Part shown: positions 3,719 through 11,714 of the stretch, piece after piece
How positions within the stretch are numbered: the first letter of the stretch is position 1
Layout of the letters: each line of letters starts with the position of its first letter
Assembly (NCBI RefSeq): GCF_003019035.1
Contig: NZ_CP027447.1
Strand: one strand, 5' to 3'
From: Escherichia coli
Lineage (GTDB): Bacteria; Pseudomonadota; Gammaproteobacteria; Enterobacterales; Enterobacteriaceae
DNA: 64,000 nucleotides
Translations under genes and position numbers: made by a program
The notes under the pieces: model-generated
What the model saw: only the letters and a program-made list of their open reading frames with translations
Told to the model about the DNA's origin: nothing
Databases searched by the model: none

Positions 3719-4735
3719 TCATTCAACCAGTGTTTGTAAACTGCTTTCGCGGTTCACTTCTGTCTGACGCGGCACAGCTGCCACCAGCGCCAGTTCGATA
3801 ATTTCCTGCACGCTACAACCACGAGAGAGATCGTGCATCGGCGCGGCAAGTCCTTGTATCAATGGCCCGACGGCACGATATCCGCCAAGTCGTTGTGCGA
3901 TTTTGTAGCCAATATTTCCGGCTTCCAGCGACGGAAAAACCATCACATTGGCCTTGCCTTGTAGCGGGCTGGCAGGCGCTTTTTGCGCCGCCACTTCCGG
4001 CACGAAGGCGGCGTCAAACTGCAACTCGCCATCGACAACCAGCTTTGGTGCGCGCTCACGGACGATTTCTGTCGCCTGCTGCACGTTGGCAACGCAGGGG
4101 TGACGGGCACTACCGTTGCTGGAAAACGACAGCATCGCCACGCGCGGTTCTTCTCCGGTGATGGCGCGCCAGGTTTCGGCGCTGGCAAGCGCGATATCCG
4201 CCAACTGCGCCGCCGTCGGCTGTGGCACCACGCTGCAATCGGCAAAACCCAACGCCGGACCGCTGTACTGTGGCAGCATCAGGAAAATGGATGAGAGCGT
4301 TTTACAGCCTGGCTGCAAGCCAATAATGCGTAATCCGGCACGCAGCACATTCGCCGTGGAAGAGAGGTTGCCCGCGATACAGACATCCGCTTTACCGGCG
4401 CTGACCATTGCTGCGGCGAACATCAGCGGGTCGGTAAGTTTTTCCAGCGCATCCGGCGGCGTTTTTTCGCCCGCGCGGGCCAGCCAGCGATGAGCAAATT
4501 CTTCCCGCATTGCGAGGTTGCCATGCGGATCAATCACCTGTAGCCCGTCCATCGCCACGCCATGACTGAGCGCAAACTGACGAAGTTCAAACGGATTGGC
4601 GACCAGAATGGGCGTTGCCAGACCTTGTTGATGTAAATATTGCGCAGCTTTCAGCACACGTTGATCTAACGCATCCGGAAAAACTACTCTGGCGGGCGCT
4701 CGCAACGCCAGTTCACGACAACGTTTAATAATCAT
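3719..4735 (-). CDS. eutD: Phosphotransacetylase EutD
   Basis: 338-aa ORF, PTA family; operon context. Confidence 0.93.
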
Positions 4736-5535
4736 TGCGTTTCCCCCAGTCGTTGTTGGATCTGCTTCACCGTTAGCGGTTGTTTCGCTACGCTCAGGAT
4801 CATCATCACGTAAACCGTGCTCGAAAGGCGGTTCAGCGCCTGCAAAATGTCCGGGCGTAATACTTCAAAGCTGCGGGTGATAAAGACCTGCGCCGCTACG
4901 GTTTCGGTTTCCCGCACTTTGGTGCGTAGCAGATTTAGCAACGCCGCATCGCGCCCGTGGCTGGCTTCCGGCACCAGATGATCGTGGTCGAGATAACGCA
5001 GCGGCTGGTGAGAAAGCCGATGCAGATCTTCGTCAGAAAGCCCGACAATCGCTTGGCAGGCCAGCGGTTCCCCCAGCGCATCGGCACGCATAATGTTGCC
5101 AAGACGCGAACGGATATCCGCCAGCCACGGCTGCCACGGTTCCGCCAGTTCAATTTGCAGCCACACTGCCAGCGCAATGGTGCTGTCGAGAACCGCGCGA
5201 AAAGCCAGGCGCGGATCGCTTTTGGCAACCATTTTTTCCGCCGACAGGTGAGTCAGCGTATCCGGCTTTTTTGCCACCGGCTGGCGGCACAGTTCGCAGC
5301 ACGCCTGCGGATGTTCATCGCTACTGGTAAGCCCGTGAACGGGCTGCGGCTGCTGCTGTTCATCGTCAACAAACAGGCGGCCCTGCTCGTCAATAAACTT
5401 GATGCGCAGATGGCGGCTTTCCAGTAACTCCCGGGCAGAGGGCGTCAGGCGACTGTCCGCAGGGAGATGGATCTCTGCGCCTTCGCTGAGCGTATGGTTC
5501 GCTCTTAGCCATGCTTCGGTGATGAAATCTTTCAT
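4732..5535 (-). CDS. eutT: Ethanolamine utilization cobalamin adenosyltransferase EutT
   Basis: 267-aa ORF with Cys-rich motif (CCELC); operon context. Confidence 0.92.
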
Positions 5536-6233
5536 AGGGATTGCCAGTTAGCCGGCCAGGCGACATACAGGAATTTCACGCTGGATGTCGTACCAAATTC
5601 GATACTGGAGCCTTTCGGGATAAACATCACATCGCCCGCTTTGGCGATCATAGTTTCGCCTTCGTGGCGAACATGCAGCTCCCCTTCCAGCACCATGTCG
5701 ATTTCGTCGTAGTTCAGGGTCCACGGAAAGAAGGCGTTCTCCCACTGCATGAAACCAGCGGCCATACTGCTGCCGTCGTCTCCGGTCACGAGATCAGTCA
5801 AGCCTACGCAGTGCGGTTCCGCGCCATCGAAACGACCAAACTTGACGCTGCTGCCATCAATCACTTTGATGCCGCCTTTGCCGGTCACCGATTTGAAGCT
5901 CGGCTGCATTGCACCCTGCTCCAGTGACTGTTTTTCCTTCATCACTTTTTCCATCAGCTGCGCGACCAGGCTTTCGGTAAACTGGCCTTCCGGTAGCTGG
6001 GCGATGATGGTTTCGCGGATGCGCTGGCTTTCGGTTTTATCGGCTGGCACGCTGGCGGGAACGGACGTCGTTACCGCAGTCGATTCATCACATTCGGTGA
6101 TGGTAAAACCCAACAGATCCGCCACTTCACGGGCTTCCGGGGTAATAATGCTGGCGCGCAGAACCACGGACATTGCCTGTTCGCCGCGCGCGTGTGCTTC
6201 ACGAATATCATTCGCTGTGATGAGTTTTTTCAC
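5532..6233 (-). CDS. eutQ: Ethanolamine utilization protein EutQ (cupin, acetate kinase activity)
   Basis: 233-aa ORF; operon context. Confidence 0.92.
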   Translation of the reverse strand: MKKLITANDIREAHARGEQAMSVVLRASIITPEAREVADLLGFTITECDESTAVTTSVPASVPADKTESQRIRETIIAQLPEGQFTESLVAQLMEKVMKEKQSLEQGAMQPSFKSVTGKGGIKVIDGSSVKFGRFDGAEPHCVGLTDLVTGDDGSSMAAGFMQWENAFFPWTLNYDEIDMVLEGELHVRHEGETMIAKAGDVMFIPKGSSIEFGTTSSVKFLYVAWPANWQSL

Positions 6234-6699: not shown

Positions 6700-7035
6700 T
6701 TAACTTTTGGTCATTTCACAAAGCGTATAATTTAATAAGCGTCCTAAACCACTGACGGTTTGTGATAACGCTTCTTCTACTGCGCCCACCGAGCCATAAA
6801 TCACCAGCGCGCCGCTAAAACGGTCGAGAAAACCGATATGCACATCGGCGGCTTTCAACGCTAAATCACCGGCGATCATCGCCGTTTCTCCGGGAGTTAG
6901 CGTCATAATGCCGATTGCGCCCGCATCCGGAACGCCGATTTTCTTCGCCAGTTCCTCGCCGGGATGCGCGATGAGATGCGCCAGTGTGACCTGTTTACCG
7001 GGCACAAATTCCTGAATGATGCGTTCTTTATCCAT
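6700..7035 (-). CDS. eutS: Microcompartment shell protein EutS (permuted BMC domain)
   Basis: Start placed at [10 protein letters not shown] giving 111 aa (ORF track extends to 7107); first gene of the eut operon. Confidence 0.9.
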
Positions 7036-7400
7036 GAGTCGCCGCCTGTGAAAAACTTTCGTGTATCGTGACAATTTTTCGTCAGAGTAAATAACAAAAT
7101 TCGGCAAGCGCGTTTAAAAGGTGAGGTAGATCACTAAGAATGGAGAGATATTTTATGTTAAGAAAAAAAACATACATTGTATGAATATAAACGGGAACCA
7201 ATAAGTTTTGTTTATCATATGTACTACAACATCTTTTAATAATCCCTCGAATCACCCGACGTTGTATTTTTAATAATTAGCAGAATACATATTTAATGTA
7301 CTGTTGTATTCTGAAAAATATTATTATCTTCACCCCATTTAAAATACATCTTACGCGATGATTTTATTCAGGAAATAAATAAAATGGATGGATCCCTGGA
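7036..7400. promoter_or_regulatory. Divergent AT-rich control region: eut operon promoter (minus strand, upstream of eutS) and promoter/leader of the inserted glycosyltransferase gene (plus strand)
   Basis: Non-coding, very AT-rich stretch between divergent genes; the eut main promoter lies upstream of eutS in enterobacteria; exact -35/-10 elements not assigned. Confidence 0.5.
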
Positions 7401-8471
7401 ATGAAAATTCACTACCTTGTCACCACCCTCGAAGCGGGAGGCGCTGAATTTGCGATTCCTGATATTGTGACTACTCTGCAAGACCTTGGTCATGAGGTGA
7501 AAATTTATGTCTGTGAACCCCGCGATATGGGAGCAGCGCCTCGTCTGGAAGCCGCTGGATTATCCTGGTGTTTATTATCAAATCGGCGGCGTTCTGAACC
7601 CATGCTTGTAGCTGCTTATCTGGCAAAAATCATTCACGACAAACCCGATCTCATCTGGACTTCGTTAAGTTGGGGGACTCGTATTGGGCAATGGGTCGGC
7701 CGGCTTATGGGCATTCCTGTTATCAGTTTTAAACATAGCGCCAGCGTAAAACCAGCGACCTGGCGTATGCGCAACATGTCTCGTTTATGGATAGGAGATT
7801 CTGAAACCGTAGCTCAATACCTGCATGAAACCATGTTGATCCCGAAGCAACAAGTGCTGTGCTGGCCCTTTTTTCAGGCGAATCCGCAAGCTGCCCAAGC
7901 GCAAAACTGGGACGGGAAATCAGTTTTACAATTAGGCTCTGTTGGACGCCTGCATGAAGTTAAAAATTACGCTGGATTAATTACAGCACTCGCTTCGTTT
8001 GTAGATAAAAACCCGCAATTGCGCTCGCGAATCCGATTAACCATTCTCGGTGAAGGGCCTGAACAGGAAGCATTGCAAAAAACCATAACGCAACACGCGT
8101 TGGAGGATGTGGTTTGTTTAGCGGGTTTTTCTGCGGATGTCGAAAATTTTCTTGCCGGATTACATGTCTACATCCAGACCTCCCGCTACGAAGGGATGTG
8201 CCTCGCTGCACACGAAGCCATGAATGCAGGGCTTGCAATCATCACGACTCCTGTAGGCGAACTTAAAGAATCGGTAATAGATGGTCATACTGGATATACG
8301 CTTAATGGCGAGCTAACGCCAGCGCTGGAGGGTGTGCTTAACCGTATTTTAAGTGAACCCGAAGAATTAGAACGCTATGGGCAAAATGTGCGGCAGTATG
8401 TATTAGCGAAGTTCAGCCATGAAAATTTTGTCCAGTCTGCAATCAACATCGTCAATAGACTTATTCACTGA
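7401..8471 (+). CDS. GT-B fold glycosyltransferase (GT4-like), accessory gene
   Basis: 356-aa ORF; C-terminal retaining-GT signature (SRYEGMCLAAHEAMNAGLAIITTPVGELKESVIDGHTGY, an E-x7-E-like motif); no signal peptide; weak ribosome-binding site. Confidence 0.8.
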   Translation: MKIHYLVTTLEAGGAEFAIPDIVTTLQDLGHEVKIYVCEPRDMGAAPRLEAAGLSWCLLSNRRRSEPMLVAAYLAKIIHDKPDLIWTSLSWGTRIGQWVGRLMGIPVISFKHSASVKPATWRMRNMSRLWIGDSETVAQYLHETMLIPKQQVLCWPFFQANPQAAQAQNWDGKSVLQLGSVGRLHEVKNYAGLITALASFVDKNPQLRSRIRLTILGEGPEQEALQKTITQHALEDVVCLAGFSADVENFLAGLHVYIQTSRYEGMCLAAHEAMNAGLAIITTPVGELKESVIDGHTGYTLNGELTPALEGVLNRILSEPEELERYGQNVRQYVLAKFSHENFVQSAINIVNRLIH

Positions 8472-8484
8472 ACAAGGCAGAAAA

Positions 8485-9387
8485 ATGAATTGCTATACCA
8501 CCGATCTTTGGCAGATAGGCATTGTTCAGGCCCCCATACAGCACATTGTTGCTTCTGGCAGTTTGGATGGCTTCAGGATTAAATGGATTACCCCGGATAA
8601 ATCACTCACTTTTCTTGCCGATCCTTTCGGTCTGTGGAAAAAAGGGGTTCTCTATCTTTTCGCGGAATCCTACGATTATCGGACTCGTCGTGGCGATATT
8701 ATCGCTTATAAGCTCAATGCTGACCTGGACGTCATTGAGCAACGAACTGTGCTACAAGAACCCTGGCATCTTTCTTATCCTTTTGTGTTTGAAGCCGATA
8801 ACGAAATCTGGATGTTACCTGAAGGATATAAATCAGGTACGCTAACGTTGTACCGCGCTATAGAGTTTCCCTGGCGATGGGAAAAGGTGCCAGATTTTTC
8901 ATTCCCTTGCGCTGCCATTGATGCCACCCCCTTTTACGCACAAGGAAAATGGTGGATGTTTTATACTCCCCCACTACCAAAGGCAGCCAGGACGGATACG
9001 TTAATGCTCGCTCATGCCCCCCATTTTATGGGGCCATGGGAAAACGTCCTGCAAACTGCCGCGCACAGGAATAAAAGCGGCGCGCGTATGGGCGGAACAC
9101 CATTTGATCATGATGGGCAAATTTTCTTACCAACACAAGATTGCAGCCGAACCTACGGTGGCGCATTGCAGATGCTGACACTAGACCCACAACGTTTATT
9201 AACTCCAGAATTTGCTGCCTCTGTGCGCCTGGAAGTGCCTGCAAGTGCCGCGCCTTTTATTGCTGGCATGCATACGCTTTCTGGCGTTGGCGACGTAACA
9301 TTCATTGATGCCAAGCGACACCTTAAAGGTTCGCCTCAGCGATTATGGGTGGATTTGCAGCGGCGGATACAGAAGTGGATCAGCTAA
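8485..9387 (+). CDS. Uncharacterized protein, probable five-bladed beta-propeller glycoside hydrolase/phosphorylase-like (GH43/GH130-type fold, inferred)
   Basis: 301 aa from the ATG at 8485 (ORF track starts earlier at 8419); N-terminal blade-like motif FLADPFGLWKKGVLYLFAE with conserved Asp/Glu and many Trp/Tyr/Phe; no signal peptide; 13 nt after the glycosyltransferase stop. Confidence 0.65.
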   Translation: MNCYTTDLWQIGIVQAPIQHIVASGSLDGFRIKWITPDKSLTFLADPFGLWKKGVLYLFAESYDYRTRRGDIIAYKLNADLDVIEQRTVLQEPWHLSYPFVFEADNEIWMLPEGYKSGTLTLYRAIEFPWRWEKVPDFSFPCAAIDATPFYAQGKWWMFYTPPLPKAARTDTLMLAHAPHFMGPWENVLQTAAHRNKSGARMGGTPFDHDGQIFLPTQDCSRTYGGALQMLTLDPQRLLTPEFAASVRLEVPASAAPFIAGMHTLSGVGDVTFIDAKRHLKGSPQRLWVDLQRRIQKWIS

Positions 9388-9390
9388 ACC

Positions 9391-9416
9391 GCTTACCCTG
9401 AATATTCAGGGTAAGC
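9391..9416. terminator. Perfect 26-bp palindrome (GCTTACCCTGAATATTCAGGGTAAGC), likely bidirectional terminator between the convergent accessory gene and maeB
   Basis: Exact inverted repeat read directly from the sequence, between two converging stop codons; no strong U-tract. Confidence 0.5.
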
Positions 9417-9434
9417 GTGAGAGTTAAGAATGAA

Positions 9435-11714
9435 TTACAGCGGTTGGGTTTGCGCTTCAACCACAGCCAGCGCCACCATGTTGACGATACGACGTACCGA
9501 TGCGATCGGCGTTAACACGTGAACCGGTTTCGCCACGCCCATCAGCACCGGACCGACAGTCACACCTTCCGAGCTGGAAACGCGCAGTAAGTTGTAACTA
9601 ATGCGGGCAGCTTCCATGTTCGGCATCACCAGAATATTAGCGGAACCTTTCAAAGGGCTGTCCGGCATACGGTCGTTGCGAATCGCTTCCACCAGCGCTG
9701 CATCGCCGTGCATTTCACCATCAATCATCAGTTCTGGCGCACGTTCCCTGACCAGTTCCAGCGCCTGACGCATTTTGCTCGACGACGGGCAGTCAGAAGA
9801 ACCAAAGTTGGAGTGCGACAACAGAGCCACACGCGGTTCAATACCAAAACGACGAACAGTTTCTGCCGCCATCAAGGTGATCTCCGCCAGCTCTTCTGCA
9901 TCAGGCTCATCATTGACGTAGGTATCGGCAATAAAGGTGTTACCACTCGGCAACAGCAGCGCGTTCATTGCACCTGCGGTGTGAACGCCATCGCGATAAC
10001 CAAAGACATTTTTCACCACGCTAAAGTGTTCATGATAATCGCCCACCGTACCGCAAATCATTGCATCGGCTTCGCCACGCTGAACCATGATCGCGCCGAT
10101 CACTGTCGGGTTACTGATCAGCGCACGCTGCGCCTGCTCCTGAGTGACACCGCGACGCTTCATGATCTGGAAGTATTCGGTCCAGTACTCTTTAAAGCGC
10201 GGATCGGATTCGTTATTGACGATCTCAAAATCAACACCCGCTTTGATCTGCAAGCCCAGTTTCTGAATGCGCATTTCGATCACGTTCGGACGACCAATAA
10301 GAATCGGTTTCGCCAGTCCCAGCGTTACCAGTTCCTGAGTGGCATGCAGAACGCGCGCCTCTTCCCCTTCCGGCAGAACGACGCGCTTCGGCGCTTTGCG
10401 AGCCTGGGAGAAAATCGGCTTCATAAACAGGTTGGTTTTGTAAACGAACTCCGTCAGCTTGTCGATGTAGACGTCGAAATCAGCAATCGGACGCGTCGCC
10501 ACGCCAGACTCCATCGCCGCTTTCGCCACCGCTGGAGCGATCTTAACGATCAAGCGCGGATCAAACGGTTTTGGAATGATGTATTCCGGACCAAAGCTCA
10601 GATCCTGATCGCCATACGCTGAAGCCACCACTTCACTCTGTTCCGCATGGGCCAGTTCTGCAATCGCGCGTACTGCCGCCAGTTTCATCTCTTCGTTGAT
10701 GGCGGTTGCGCCAACGTCCAGCGCGCCACGGAAGATAAACGGGAAGCAAAGGACGTTGTTCACCTGGTTCGGGTAGTCGGAACGGCCGGTACAGATGATG
10801 GCATCCGGACGCACTTCTTTCGCCAGCGGCGGCAGAATTTCCGGTTCCGGATTCGCCAGCGCCAGGATCATTGGTGCCCGAGCCATTTTCTTCACCATTT
10901 CCTGGGTCAGCACTTTCGGGCCGGAACAACCCAGGAAAATATCCGCGCCTTCAATCACATCATCGAGGGTACGTTTGCCGTCATCCACCACCGCATATGC
11001 GGCTTTGGTTTCCGCCATATTTGGCTCACGGCCCTGATAGATAACGCCTTTTGAATCACAAACCACGATGTTATGTTTTTGCAGCCCCAGCGCCACCAGC
11101 AGGTTCATACAGGCGATTGCTGCTGCACCCGCGCCGGAAACCACCATCCGCACGTCGGAGATGTTTTTCTCCACCACGCGCAATCCGTTGAGGATGGCGG
11201 CAGTGCTGATAATTGCCGTGCCGTGCTGATCGTCGTGGAATACTGGAATATTCATCCGCTCGCGCAGTTTCTGTTCAATATAGAAACATTCTGGCGCTTT
11301 AATGTCTTCGAGGTTGATGCCGCCGAAGGTCGGTTCAAGCGCGGCGACGACTTCAATAAATTTGTCCGGGTCGAGTTCATCAACTTCAATGTCAAATACA
11401 TCAATCCCGGCGAATTTCTTAAACAGAACGCCCTTGCCTTCCATCACCGGTTTGCCTGCCAGCGCGCCAATGTTGCCTAACCCCAGCACCGCCGTACCGT
11501 TAGAGATCACCGCCACCAGGTTACCACGCGCGGTATATTTGTAGGCTTTTAACGGGTCTTTTTCGATTTCAAGACAAGGTGCGGCAACGCCTGGTGAGTA
11601 GGCCAGCGCCAGATCGCGCTGCGTTGCCAGAGGCTTGGTTGGAGAAACCTGGATTTTCCCTGGAACTGGAAATTCATGGAAATCAAGTGCACTTTGTTTT
11701 AACTGGTCATCCAT
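9435..11714 (-). CDS. maeB: NADP-dependent malic enzyme MaeB (malic enzyme domain fused to PTA-like domain)
   Basis: 759-aa ORF starting [28 protein letters not shown]. Confidence 0.96.

Follow-up and report, generated by a model that had tools for sequence, protein, structure and literature searches.

In the stretch of 64,000 nucleotides analysed here (referred to as the window), which belongs to contig NZ_CP027447.1 of the Escherichia coli assembly GCF_003019035.1, the genes eutS and maeB, both on the minus strand, flank two co-directional open reading frames (ORFs) on the plus strand, as seen in the ORF listing of the window. The first of these (gene 1) encodes a predicted glycosyltransferase of family GT4, and the second (gene 2) a predicted beta-propeller protein. 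In K-12 MG1655, eutS and maeB are direct neighbours separated by a spacer of 292 bp, and the two-gene cassette is absent; an initial annotation, made from the sequence of the window, had placed the pair between neighbours that adjoin each other in K-12, and both the ORF listing and the comparison with MG1655 agree with it. The cassette represents foreign DNA that a single, rare E. coli lineage carries between these two genes.

The junctions were located by alignment to an empty site, for which the locus L001 of strain MCJCHV-1 was used as the reference. The identity to this locus stops at position 7153 of the window and restarts at 9381, which delimits a foreign segment that has replaced approximately 120 bp of the eutS-maeB spacer (Table 1). 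The insert initially placed at 7108-9434 is thus real, but its ends were drawn too wide, given that the 46 bp of 7108-7153 and the 54 bp of 9381-9434 are ordinary E. coli sequence. The left limit fell inside the ordinary spacer because the eutS ORF, which reaches TTG 7107 only mechanically, ends there; the annotated EutS (111 aa) begins at ATG 7035. Homology between the leader of the cassette and the spacer of the empty site, which would blur the left junction, was rejected, since the local alignment score was equal to the shuffle mean. The stop codon of gene 2 (9385-9387) falls in the sequence that is common to the empty sites.

No integrase, transposase or insertion sequence (IS) element is found among the ORFs of the segment, and a repeat search recovered none of the direct or inverted repeats flanking 7154 and 9380 by which a mobile element would be recognised. 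The cassette deviates from its flanks when GC content and codon usage are compared, as the initial annotation had suggested doing: the GC content at third codon positions (GC3) is 0.44-0.46 in the cassette genes versus 0.52-0.65 in the flanks, the local codon adaptation of the cassette genes is lower, and their rare codons are more numerous. The AT-rich leader described at the outset is also evident, with 31-33% GC across 7000-7450 versus 50-58% in the flanks.

Table 1. Features of the eutS-maeB region (positions in the window)
Feature	Position	Strand	Basis or remark
eutS, left core flank	6700..7035	-	111 aa; RefSeq annotation of identical region
eutS-proximal spacer, common to cassette-less genomes	7036..7153	.	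Identical to L001
Foreign segment, 2,227 bp	7154..9380	+	L001 junction alignment
AT-rich leader, ~31% GC	7154..7400	+	Composition; host-specific
Imperfect palindrome in leader	7271..7323	.	19-nt arms, 84% complementary; repeat search
Predicted GT4-family (GT-B, retaining-type) glycosyltransferase, 356 aa	7401..8471	+	Pfam, EX7E motif
PF24793 (GINT1_N) protein, predicted five-bladed beta-propeller, 300 aa	8485..9387	+	
maeB-proximal spacer, common to empty sites	9381..9434	.	L001 alignment
maeB, right core flank	9435..11714	-	ORF and RefSeq annotation

The two encoded proteins

Gene 1 matches the Pfam domains Glycos_transf_1 (PF00534, 2.2e-29, residues 178-332) and Glyco_transf_4 (PF13439, 7.6e-9, residues 13-155), which substantiates the GT-B glycosyltransferase first proposed. 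It also carries the EX7E motif E264...E272 (SRYE264GMCLAAHE272AM), in which E264 is invariant and E272 at least 90% conserved among 20 paired orthologs, and its AlphaFold2 (AF2) model presents an alternating beta/alpha secondary structure. The protein is, by prediction, a soluble or peripheral glycosyltransferase of the retaining GT4/GT-B type. The closest solved relatives are MshA (PDB 7qsg, 3e-10), BshA, TarM and Gtf1, and the N-acetylglucosamine (GlcNAc)-phosphatidylglycerol synthase is also among the closest named relatives. The best NCBIfam match, at 119 bits, was TIGR03088, an exopolysaccharide (EPS) transferase model of unspecified specificity, and EpsE was matched as well, all far under the cut-offs; the scores for the equivalog models of BshA (67.5 bits, cut-off 273.7) and MshA (42.1 bits, cut-off 462.5) place gene 1 in neither. 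The sugar specificity of the GT4 cannot be read from its sequence. Its orthologs form a sharply bounded clade, beyond which the scores drop from at least 200 to 85 bits. One ortholog, P0289, 61% identical, is filed under the genome of the ant Lasius niger on a 2.2-kb contig, and it is most likely the DNA of a bacterial symbiont or contaminant in a eukaryotic assembly.

A weak match of gene 1 to the GT4-conflict family PF20706 (1e-5), which is flagged on many of the orthologs too, and the form of the cassette as a small mobile island might suggest an anti-phage defence or conflict system with a glycosyltransferase effector. Such a role is highly improbable, however, given that the generic GT4 domains match the same region far more strongly, that the PADLOC models returned zero matches for both proteins, that the only PHROGs match was to a generic glycosyltransferase, with a single weak phage match, and that the neighbours of the pair elsewhere are envelope-biogenesis genes and not defence islands.

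In RefSeq, gene 2 is modelled with 322 aa from ATG 8419, overlapping the GT4 gene by 53 nt. Since its homologs all have approximately 300 aa, the start was placed at ATG 8485 (Met-23 of the RefSeq model), which yields 300 aa. An AAGG lies 9 nt 5' of this codon, and 13 nt separate the stop codon of the GT4 gene from it. The 22 codons upstream of ATG 8485 are probably untranslated, and gene 2 is probably coupled translationally to the GT4 gene. Neither protein appears to have a signal peptide, as first noted, and hydropathy indicates no transmembrane helix either (maximum KD19 of ~1.1).

The Pfam family of gene 2 is PF24793 (GINT1_N; i-Evalue 5.3e-35, model positions 58-252 of 304). AlphaFold2, run on an alignment of 53 sequences, returned an all-beta model with a pLDDT of 96.5 and a pTM of 0.93, in which one propeller accounts for the 300 aa; on this confident fold model, gene 2 is a five-bladed beta-propeller. 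The closest folds are those of the glycoside hydrolase (GH) families GH130, GH159, GH43, GH62 and GH117, and by sequence gene 2 belongs to none of them. After GH130, the fold scores were 20.5 for GH159, 19.8 for GH62, 19.2 for GH43 and 18.4 for GH117, followed by a propeller N-acetylgalactosamine (GalNAc) deacetylase (6n1b, rank 20) with 17.9, GH32 with 17.6 and a Leishmania GT108-type protein with 17.3. Foldseek against the PDB gave TM-scores of only 0.5-0.58 over the same families, and against AFDB50 it recovered only uncharacterised entries named ‘GINT1 N-terminal domain’ or ‘formyl transferase’, including the E. coli protein itself (A0A0A1A6U8).

At the level of sequence, neither single-sequence nor profile searches recovered a solved relative of gene 2, and NCBIfam, PADLOC and PHROGs contained no family that matches it. 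The profile search against the PDB gave matches to GH43 blades only (E = 0.008-0.017), and the best GH43 match in Pfam, with E = 0.0033 over 80 residues, is blade-shifted and below the threshold. Membership of GH43 was rejected on account of these matches and of R201, which stands where the blade-IV acid is presumed to lie, a position assigned from the positions of the strands and not by superposition. Gene 2 differs in the same manner from the other furanosidase propellers of the clan GH-F type (GH62, GH159 and GH117), which it resembles only below Pfam significance and blade-shifted. Compared with the GH43-type propellers, it also has two invariant histidines, and the protein is cytoplasmic and encoded beside a biosynthetic glycosyltransferase, not in a polysaccharide-utilisation locus.

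The residues that are fully or almost invariant in the close orthologs are D46 (in ‘ADPF’), E61, Y98/P99, E113, D146, R201, Q218/D219, H263/T264 and D275, and the same set is fully or almost invariant in multidomain, fused relatives of 25-43% identity. Most of them stand at, or just before, the starts of the predicted strands 42-52, 97-104, 145-152, 207-209 and 265-268, which on the model may be the inner strands that line the central funnel, the site of the catalytic residues in such propellers. If the conserved residues do line the funnel, catalysis would be favoured over scaffolding. The invariant set, which combines carboxylates with Arg, Lys and two His (H95 and H263; also K277), is unlike the classical GH43 triad and would fit either a phosphate-binding or a metal-binding site.

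The same fold serves several chemistries, given that the fold of GH130 and GT108 supports phosphorolysis, hydrolysis and transfer dependent on GDP-sugars (PMC12814180) and that 6n1b is a deacetylase, so the fold alone cannot decide between them. The profile and structural searches that the initial annotation had called for thus assign gene 1 to GT4, and gene 2 to PF24793 with a propeller fold of the glycosidase/phosphorylase type. Of the glycosidase/phosphorylase-like features that had been attributed to gene 2, the fold is upheld, but a role as hydrolase or phosphorylase is not, as the likeness lies in the fold only and the sequence belongs to neither GH43 nor GH130. On this model, gene 2 belongs to a distinct, uncharacterised family in the five-bladed propeller superfold of glycosidases and phosphorylases.

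The RefSeq product name of gene 2, ‘glucosamine inositolphosphorylceramide transferase family protein’, has its source in Arabidopsis GINT1, the GT64 GlcNAc transferase for the glycosyl inositolphosphorylceramides (GIPCs) that carry glucosamine (GlcN) or GlcNAc. The N-terminal domain PF24793 is shared, and in both cases it accompanies a glycosyltransferase of a glycolipid pathway, which for E. coli is the putative role (PMC8553973). On the other hand, the E. coli protein consists of the propeller domain only, and the Pfam scan, in which GINT1_N and a weak GH43 were the only matches, revealed no GT64 catalytic domain; the name is therefore misleading. E. coli is not known to make inositolphosphorylceramide.

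No paper on PF24793/GINT1_N in bacteria was found in the library searched, and the papers on the propeller deacetylase describe no details of its active site. Annotations of both genes exist in RefSeq and UniProt; the propeller family itself is without a characterised member. An exhaustive search recovered 7,950 representative clusters of the family at 50% identity, with many members of ~550 aa that have an N-terminal formyltransferase-like fold. All 24 sampled multidomain relatives match PF24793, and only two match PF00551, weakly. The assignment as sugar N-formyltransferase, a name given to some homologs, was discarded for gene 2, which lacks the Formyl_trans_N domain. An argument for amine chemistry from working formyltransferase domains in fused members of the family was also rejected, given that the SLLP/His catalytic motif is absent from the N-terminal domain in all 24 relatives of the ~550-aa type; the sole SLLP-type match to a regular expression is loose and lies at residue 593 of P0237, outside that domain. 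Two distant relatives have other arrangements, with the propeller at residues 206-488 of P0189 (888 aa) and 573-839 of P0245 (869 aa). The N-terminal stretch of the latter has an ‘RHDVD’ motif and is reminiscent, by eye, of a polysaccharide-deacetylase-type domain. The domains of both proteins are potential clues to the chemistry of the pathway.

Co-inheritance of the pair and its history in E. coli

The two genes are co-inherited over hundreds of species. A propeller relative is encoded in 469 species-representative genomes, according to one scan, and the GT4 clade extends over the same taxa. Close orthologs (45-66% identity) are found in Pluralibacter, Shimwellia, Rouxiella, Serratia sp. M24T3, Rosenbergiella and Carnimonas, in many Acetobacteraceae, and in Sphingomonadaceae and Caulobacteraceae. 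Known orthologs come no closer than 64-66% identity, and Escherichia has no representative among the best 80 species loci. Four other enterobacterial genera (Shimwellia, Pluralibacter, Rosenbergiella and Rouxiella) carry the pair, in the order GT4-then-propeller, as an isolated two-gene island like that of E. coli, each time between different, unrelated genes, which makes five chromosomal sites in five enterobacterial genera. No other gene travels with the pair in these islands, and the self-contained module postulated in the initial annotation is thus recognisable in all five. In Pluralibacter gergoviae, a LysR regulator and the pair are separated by ~2.1 kb in which no gene is called (L008, 2805-4905), an unusual length for intergenic DNA in enterobacteria.

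The neighbourhoods were counted in the best 80 loci from other species. The orthologous GT4 lies within 150 bp of the propeller gene in 50 of them and within 3 kb in four, a different GT4-like gene is present within 600 bp in six, and the remaining 20 have no GT4 match near the propeller gene. The arrangement in the 54 loci with the orthologous GT4 varies, being convergent in 36, GT4-then-propeller in 10 and propeller-then-GT4 in eight. In addition, one of the 24 sampled multidomain relatives, which we take to be P0189, unites GT4 domains and the propeller in a single polypeptide. The adjacency that survives rearrangement, together with this natural fusion, provides good evidence that both proteins act in one pathway.

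Within E. coli, 5,426 complete genomes were surveyed. A query that extends from eutS to maeB had matches in 5,423 of these, with at least 80% of its length covered in only 89, and an insert-specific query (7160-9375) had any match in 91 and a full-length match at 99% identity or more in 83. All of the cassette matches are chromosomal and at this eutS-maeB site, with no plasmid-borne copy among these genomes, and in ~98% of the genomes eutS and maeB are adjacent as in K-12. The presence/absence polymorphism that the initial annotation expected relative to K-12 therefore exists, with an intact cassette in the 83 genomes and none in MG1655. The carrier lineage includes isolates named ST648 and IMT16316.

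Eight more genomes have partial cassettes at the same site. In AF14 and GF131, the GT4 ORF is intact, with 88.5% and 97.8% nucleotide identity, respectively, to the allele of the window, and the propeller gene is a remnant of ~600 bp with stop codons, frameshifts and a deletion of 370 nt; the divergent alleles lie at positions 4241-5911 of both L093 (AF14) and L094 (GF131), equivalent to 7401-9434 of the window. GF131 looks like a recombinant, as its GT4 is near the window allele and yet it has the same decayed propeller remnant as AF14. In isolate 624, an IS1 splits the propeller gene only, in its 5' part (~8650 of the window; L097, 1789-2486), and leaves the GT4 intact, which is a second, independent inactivation of the propeller gene. 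The persistence of the GT4 without its partner indicates that the propeller step is either downstream or optional.

Between the two E. coli alleles, the GT4 has a dS of 0.31 and a dN of 0.047, with an omega of 0.15, versus an omega of ~0.49 for the propeller remnant. This divergence seems to exceed by far what is usual among the core genes of E. coli, and it would imply either a long residence of the cassette at this site or its introgression from a divergent lineage. A different replacement was observed in strain HS-02, in which the leader is kept up to ~7382 of the window and both genes are then replaced by 615 bp of filler (L095, 1384-1998), a poly-A/C-rich, low-complexity sequence of 29% GC that has a ‘hypothetical protein’ of 62 aa annotated inside. 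This poly-A-rich filler is probably an artefact of assembly or consensus rather than biology.

These losses raise the question of whether the cassette is a silent or decaying relic in E. coli, possibly foreign DNA silenced by H-NS and awaiting deletion. The 31% GC leader without a consensus promoter, the inactivation of the propeller gene on at least two occasions (by decay and by IS1), the truncated versions in protein databases and the retention of the cassette in only ~1.5% of the genomes would all fit a relic. This explanation is improbable, however, as both ORFs are intact at 99% identity or more in 83 genomes, the GT4 is under purifying selection (over the dS of 0.31) and remains open even beside a dead partner, and the orthologs are conserved across the 469 species genomes. 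If the cassette were silent in E. coli, it would be an ordinary accessory island only.

A putative envelope-glycan module and competing explanations

The genes that surround the pair in other taxa offer the main indications of its acceptor. In the Alphaproteobacteria, a divergent GT-B-like protein is present in 25 of the 80 loci, and a Wzx-like multi-pass protein, with a weak match to Pfam Polysacc_synt, in 19. In the Acetobacteraceae loci that lack an adjacent orthologous GT4, the propeller gene adjoins genes for an LpxL-type acyltransferase, LpxK and WaaA, or LolC/E, or LptG. Genes for nucleotide-sugar synthesis are not among the recurrent neighbours. Given the Wzx-like and lipopolysaccharide (LPS) or lipid A neighbours, and the lack of recurrent sugar-synthesis genes, we infer that the acceptor is an envelope glycolipid or glycan anchored in a membrane and that the donor is one of the nucleotide sugars of housekeeping metabolism. 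Such guilt by association favours an envelope glycolipid or glycan over the cytoplasmic glycoside proposed in the initial annotation, which finds no support in these loci and is somewhat disfavoured by them.

The reading that we prefer, with a probability of roughly 40%, is that the cassette is a horizontally acquired, self-contained two-enzyme module that modifies a glycan on an envelope glycolipid. On the cytoplasmic side of the inner membrane, the GT4 would draw on a housekeeping nucleotide sugar and attach an alpha-linked sugar to a membrane-anchored glycolipid; this acceptor may be the lipid A-core of the LPS or an undecaprenyl-linked glycan. The propeller enzyme would subsequently act on the glycan so modified, either to process the new residue or to extend it, a step that appears to be dispensable in E. 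coli, where the GT4 is maintained in genomes that have lost the propeller gene. Since both the acceptor and the donor would be housekeeping molecules of the host, the pair would need neither a flippase nor sugar-synthesis genes of its own, and it could therefore work after its transfer into unrelated Gram-negative hosts.

Such a module would have precedents in the accessory LPS-core genes found outside the waa cluster, such as the E. coli waaH and the wabB of pO157. Because MsbA flips the lipid A-core after its assembly on the cytoplasmic side of the inner membrane, such genes need no dedicated flippase. Like the cassette, the waaH and wabB types are small accessory glycosyltransferase loci without a flippase. 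A core or lipid A target for the E. coli cassette is suggested by the gene neighbourhoods in other taxa.

Several points weigh against this proposal. The putative donor, acceptor and product are all deduced from context, and the leader of the cassette, whose expression in E. coli is presumed, has no match to the strict sigma-70 consensus. Conserved synteny with no bearing on function could account for the lpx/lpt/lol neighbourhood. The sphingomonads are carriers of the pair that have no LPS, so the acceptor cannot be identical everywhere. The enterobacterial cassettes, with no flippase and two soluble proteins, are equally compatible with a cytoplasmic product. Finally, a linked-chain AF2 run on 20 paired orthologs, which is a weak test, predicted no defined complex of the GT4 and the propeller (pTM 0.54), with both halves folding confidently.

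The cytoplasmic alternative would consist of a make-and-remodel cycle, in which the GT4 makes a soluble glycoside or storage oligosaccharide and the propeller, as a phosphorylase or hydrolase of the GH130/GT108 kind, recycles the product, by analogy with the mannogen of Leishmania or the beta-mannoside phosphorylase systems. The lack of signal peptides and transmembrane segments in both proteins and of a flippase in the enterobacterial cassettes fits such a cycle, the conserved R201, K277, H95 and H263 could bind phosphate, and many of the hosts are linked, judging by their names, to sugar-rich habitats (nectar, insect guts, vinegar). We consider this cycle unlikely, because the alphaproteobacterial pairs adjoin Wzx-like and LPS/lipid A genes rather than sugar transporters or kinases, membership of GH130 or GH43 is lacking at the sequence level, the fold scores are near-equal for six GH families, and the persistence of the GT4 after the loss of the propeller would be odd for an obligatory pair of synthesis and recycling. 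The GH130 phosphorylases, dual mannosyltransferase-phosphorylases and GT108 proteins (Teth514_1788, Uhgb_MS and the Leishmania MTPs) themselves have 9-14% identity to gene 2, with no detectable sequence relationship and a Foldseek TM-score of ~0.55. Their invariant residue set is different, and the cassette propeller is paired with a GT4 and not with genes of mannose metabolism.

GT4 GlcNAc transferases are commonly partnered with a deacetylase, and the pair has a likeness to MshA/MshB, BshA/BshB, PIG-A/PIG-L and the Klebsiella WabH/WabN, in which the sugar newly added by a GT4 becomes the substrate of another soluble enzyme. It differs from BshA in the low score of gene 1 given above, and the second enzyme in pathways of the MshB/BshB/PIG-L type is an LmbE/PIG-L-type or similar deacetylase, not a beta-propeller. 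By analogy with these pathways, the propeller could be a sugar de-N-acetylase, with the GT4 transferring GlcNAc from UDP-GlcNAc and PF24793 deacetylating it to leave a cationic GlcN on a membrane glycolipid.

BshA, MshA and the GlcNAc-phosphatidylglycerol synthase are indeed among the closest named relatives of the GT4, and His95 and His263, with Asp46, Asp146 and Glu113, could form a metal site. The plant GINT1, in which the domain stands beside the transferase domain, yields both GlcN- and GlcNAc-GIPCs from UDP-GlcNAc (PMC8553973). The glycosphingolipids GSL-3 and GSL-4 of sphingomonads contain GlcN and glucuronic acid (GlcA) (PMC6445935), and sphingomonads are major carriers of the pair; the known enzymes of their synthesis are limited to Sgt1, Sgt2 and the ceramide glucuronosyltransferases, with the later transferases unidentified (PMC6445935, PMC13318209). 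The de-N-acetylase is an improbable explanation all the same: 6n1b is only the 20th fold match, behind GH130, GH159, GH43, GH62 and GH117, the missing SLLP/His motif in the formyltransferase-like domains of many relatives removes one argument for amine chemistry, and the best NCBIfam match of the GT4, with no sugar specificity readable from its sequence, is the EPS transferase model.

There is likewise a small chance that PF24793 as a whole comprises unrecognised beta-propeller de-N-acetylases, or other enzymes that form or process GlcN, which act with an alpha-GlcNAc transferase to place cationic GlcN on anionic membrane glycolipids. If this were true, it would explain the hitherto unexplained GlcN of the GINT1-dependent GIPCs of plants and of the sphingomonad GSL-3 and GSL-4, and the E. 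coli cassette would be a portable kit that adds GlcN to the LPS core or lipid A, with possible effects on the susceptibility to cationic peptides, polymyxin and phages.

Were the cassette to decorate an envelope glycolipid, as we prefer, it could affect the serology of the carrier lineage and its susceptibility to phages and antimicrobial peptides. PF24793 is a very large family in which no bacterial protein has been characterised and no structure solved, and its database name is wrong for these proteins. The tight, rearrangement-proof pairing with a single GT4 clade, together with the bare two-gene mobility between Acetobacteraceae-like and enterobacterial genomes, provides a tractable entry point to it. 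The E. coli carriers and the K-12 non-carriers form a ready-made genetic system for a product search, which might identify missing steps of the biosynthesis of bacterial glycosphingolipids and plant GIPCs.

Leader, intergenic elements and minor neighbours

The leaders of nine cassettes do not align with one another, and that of the E. coli cassette cannot be aligned with those of Shimwellia, Pluralibacter, Rosenbergiella, Rouxiella, Carnimonas or Acetobacter; no Rfam match was found in it. The palindrome within this leader is a possible operator.

A metallophosphoesterase (L004/L005, 9441-10406; cluster 5 in 13 loci of the Acetobacteraceae) is repeatedly encoded within a few kb of the propeller gene, with an ‘anti-phage phosphoesterase’ model as its best NCBIfam match, at a score far under the cut-off. 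The surroundings also repeatedly contain a YegS-like lipid kinase and LptF/G, and the recurrence of these genes may be simply conserved synteny.

At the right end of the E. coli cassette, a perfect hairpin with arms of 14+14 nt (9390-9417, 100% complementary) lies 3' of both of the convergent genes, gene 2 and maeB, and it could serve as a predicted terminator of both convergent transcripts.

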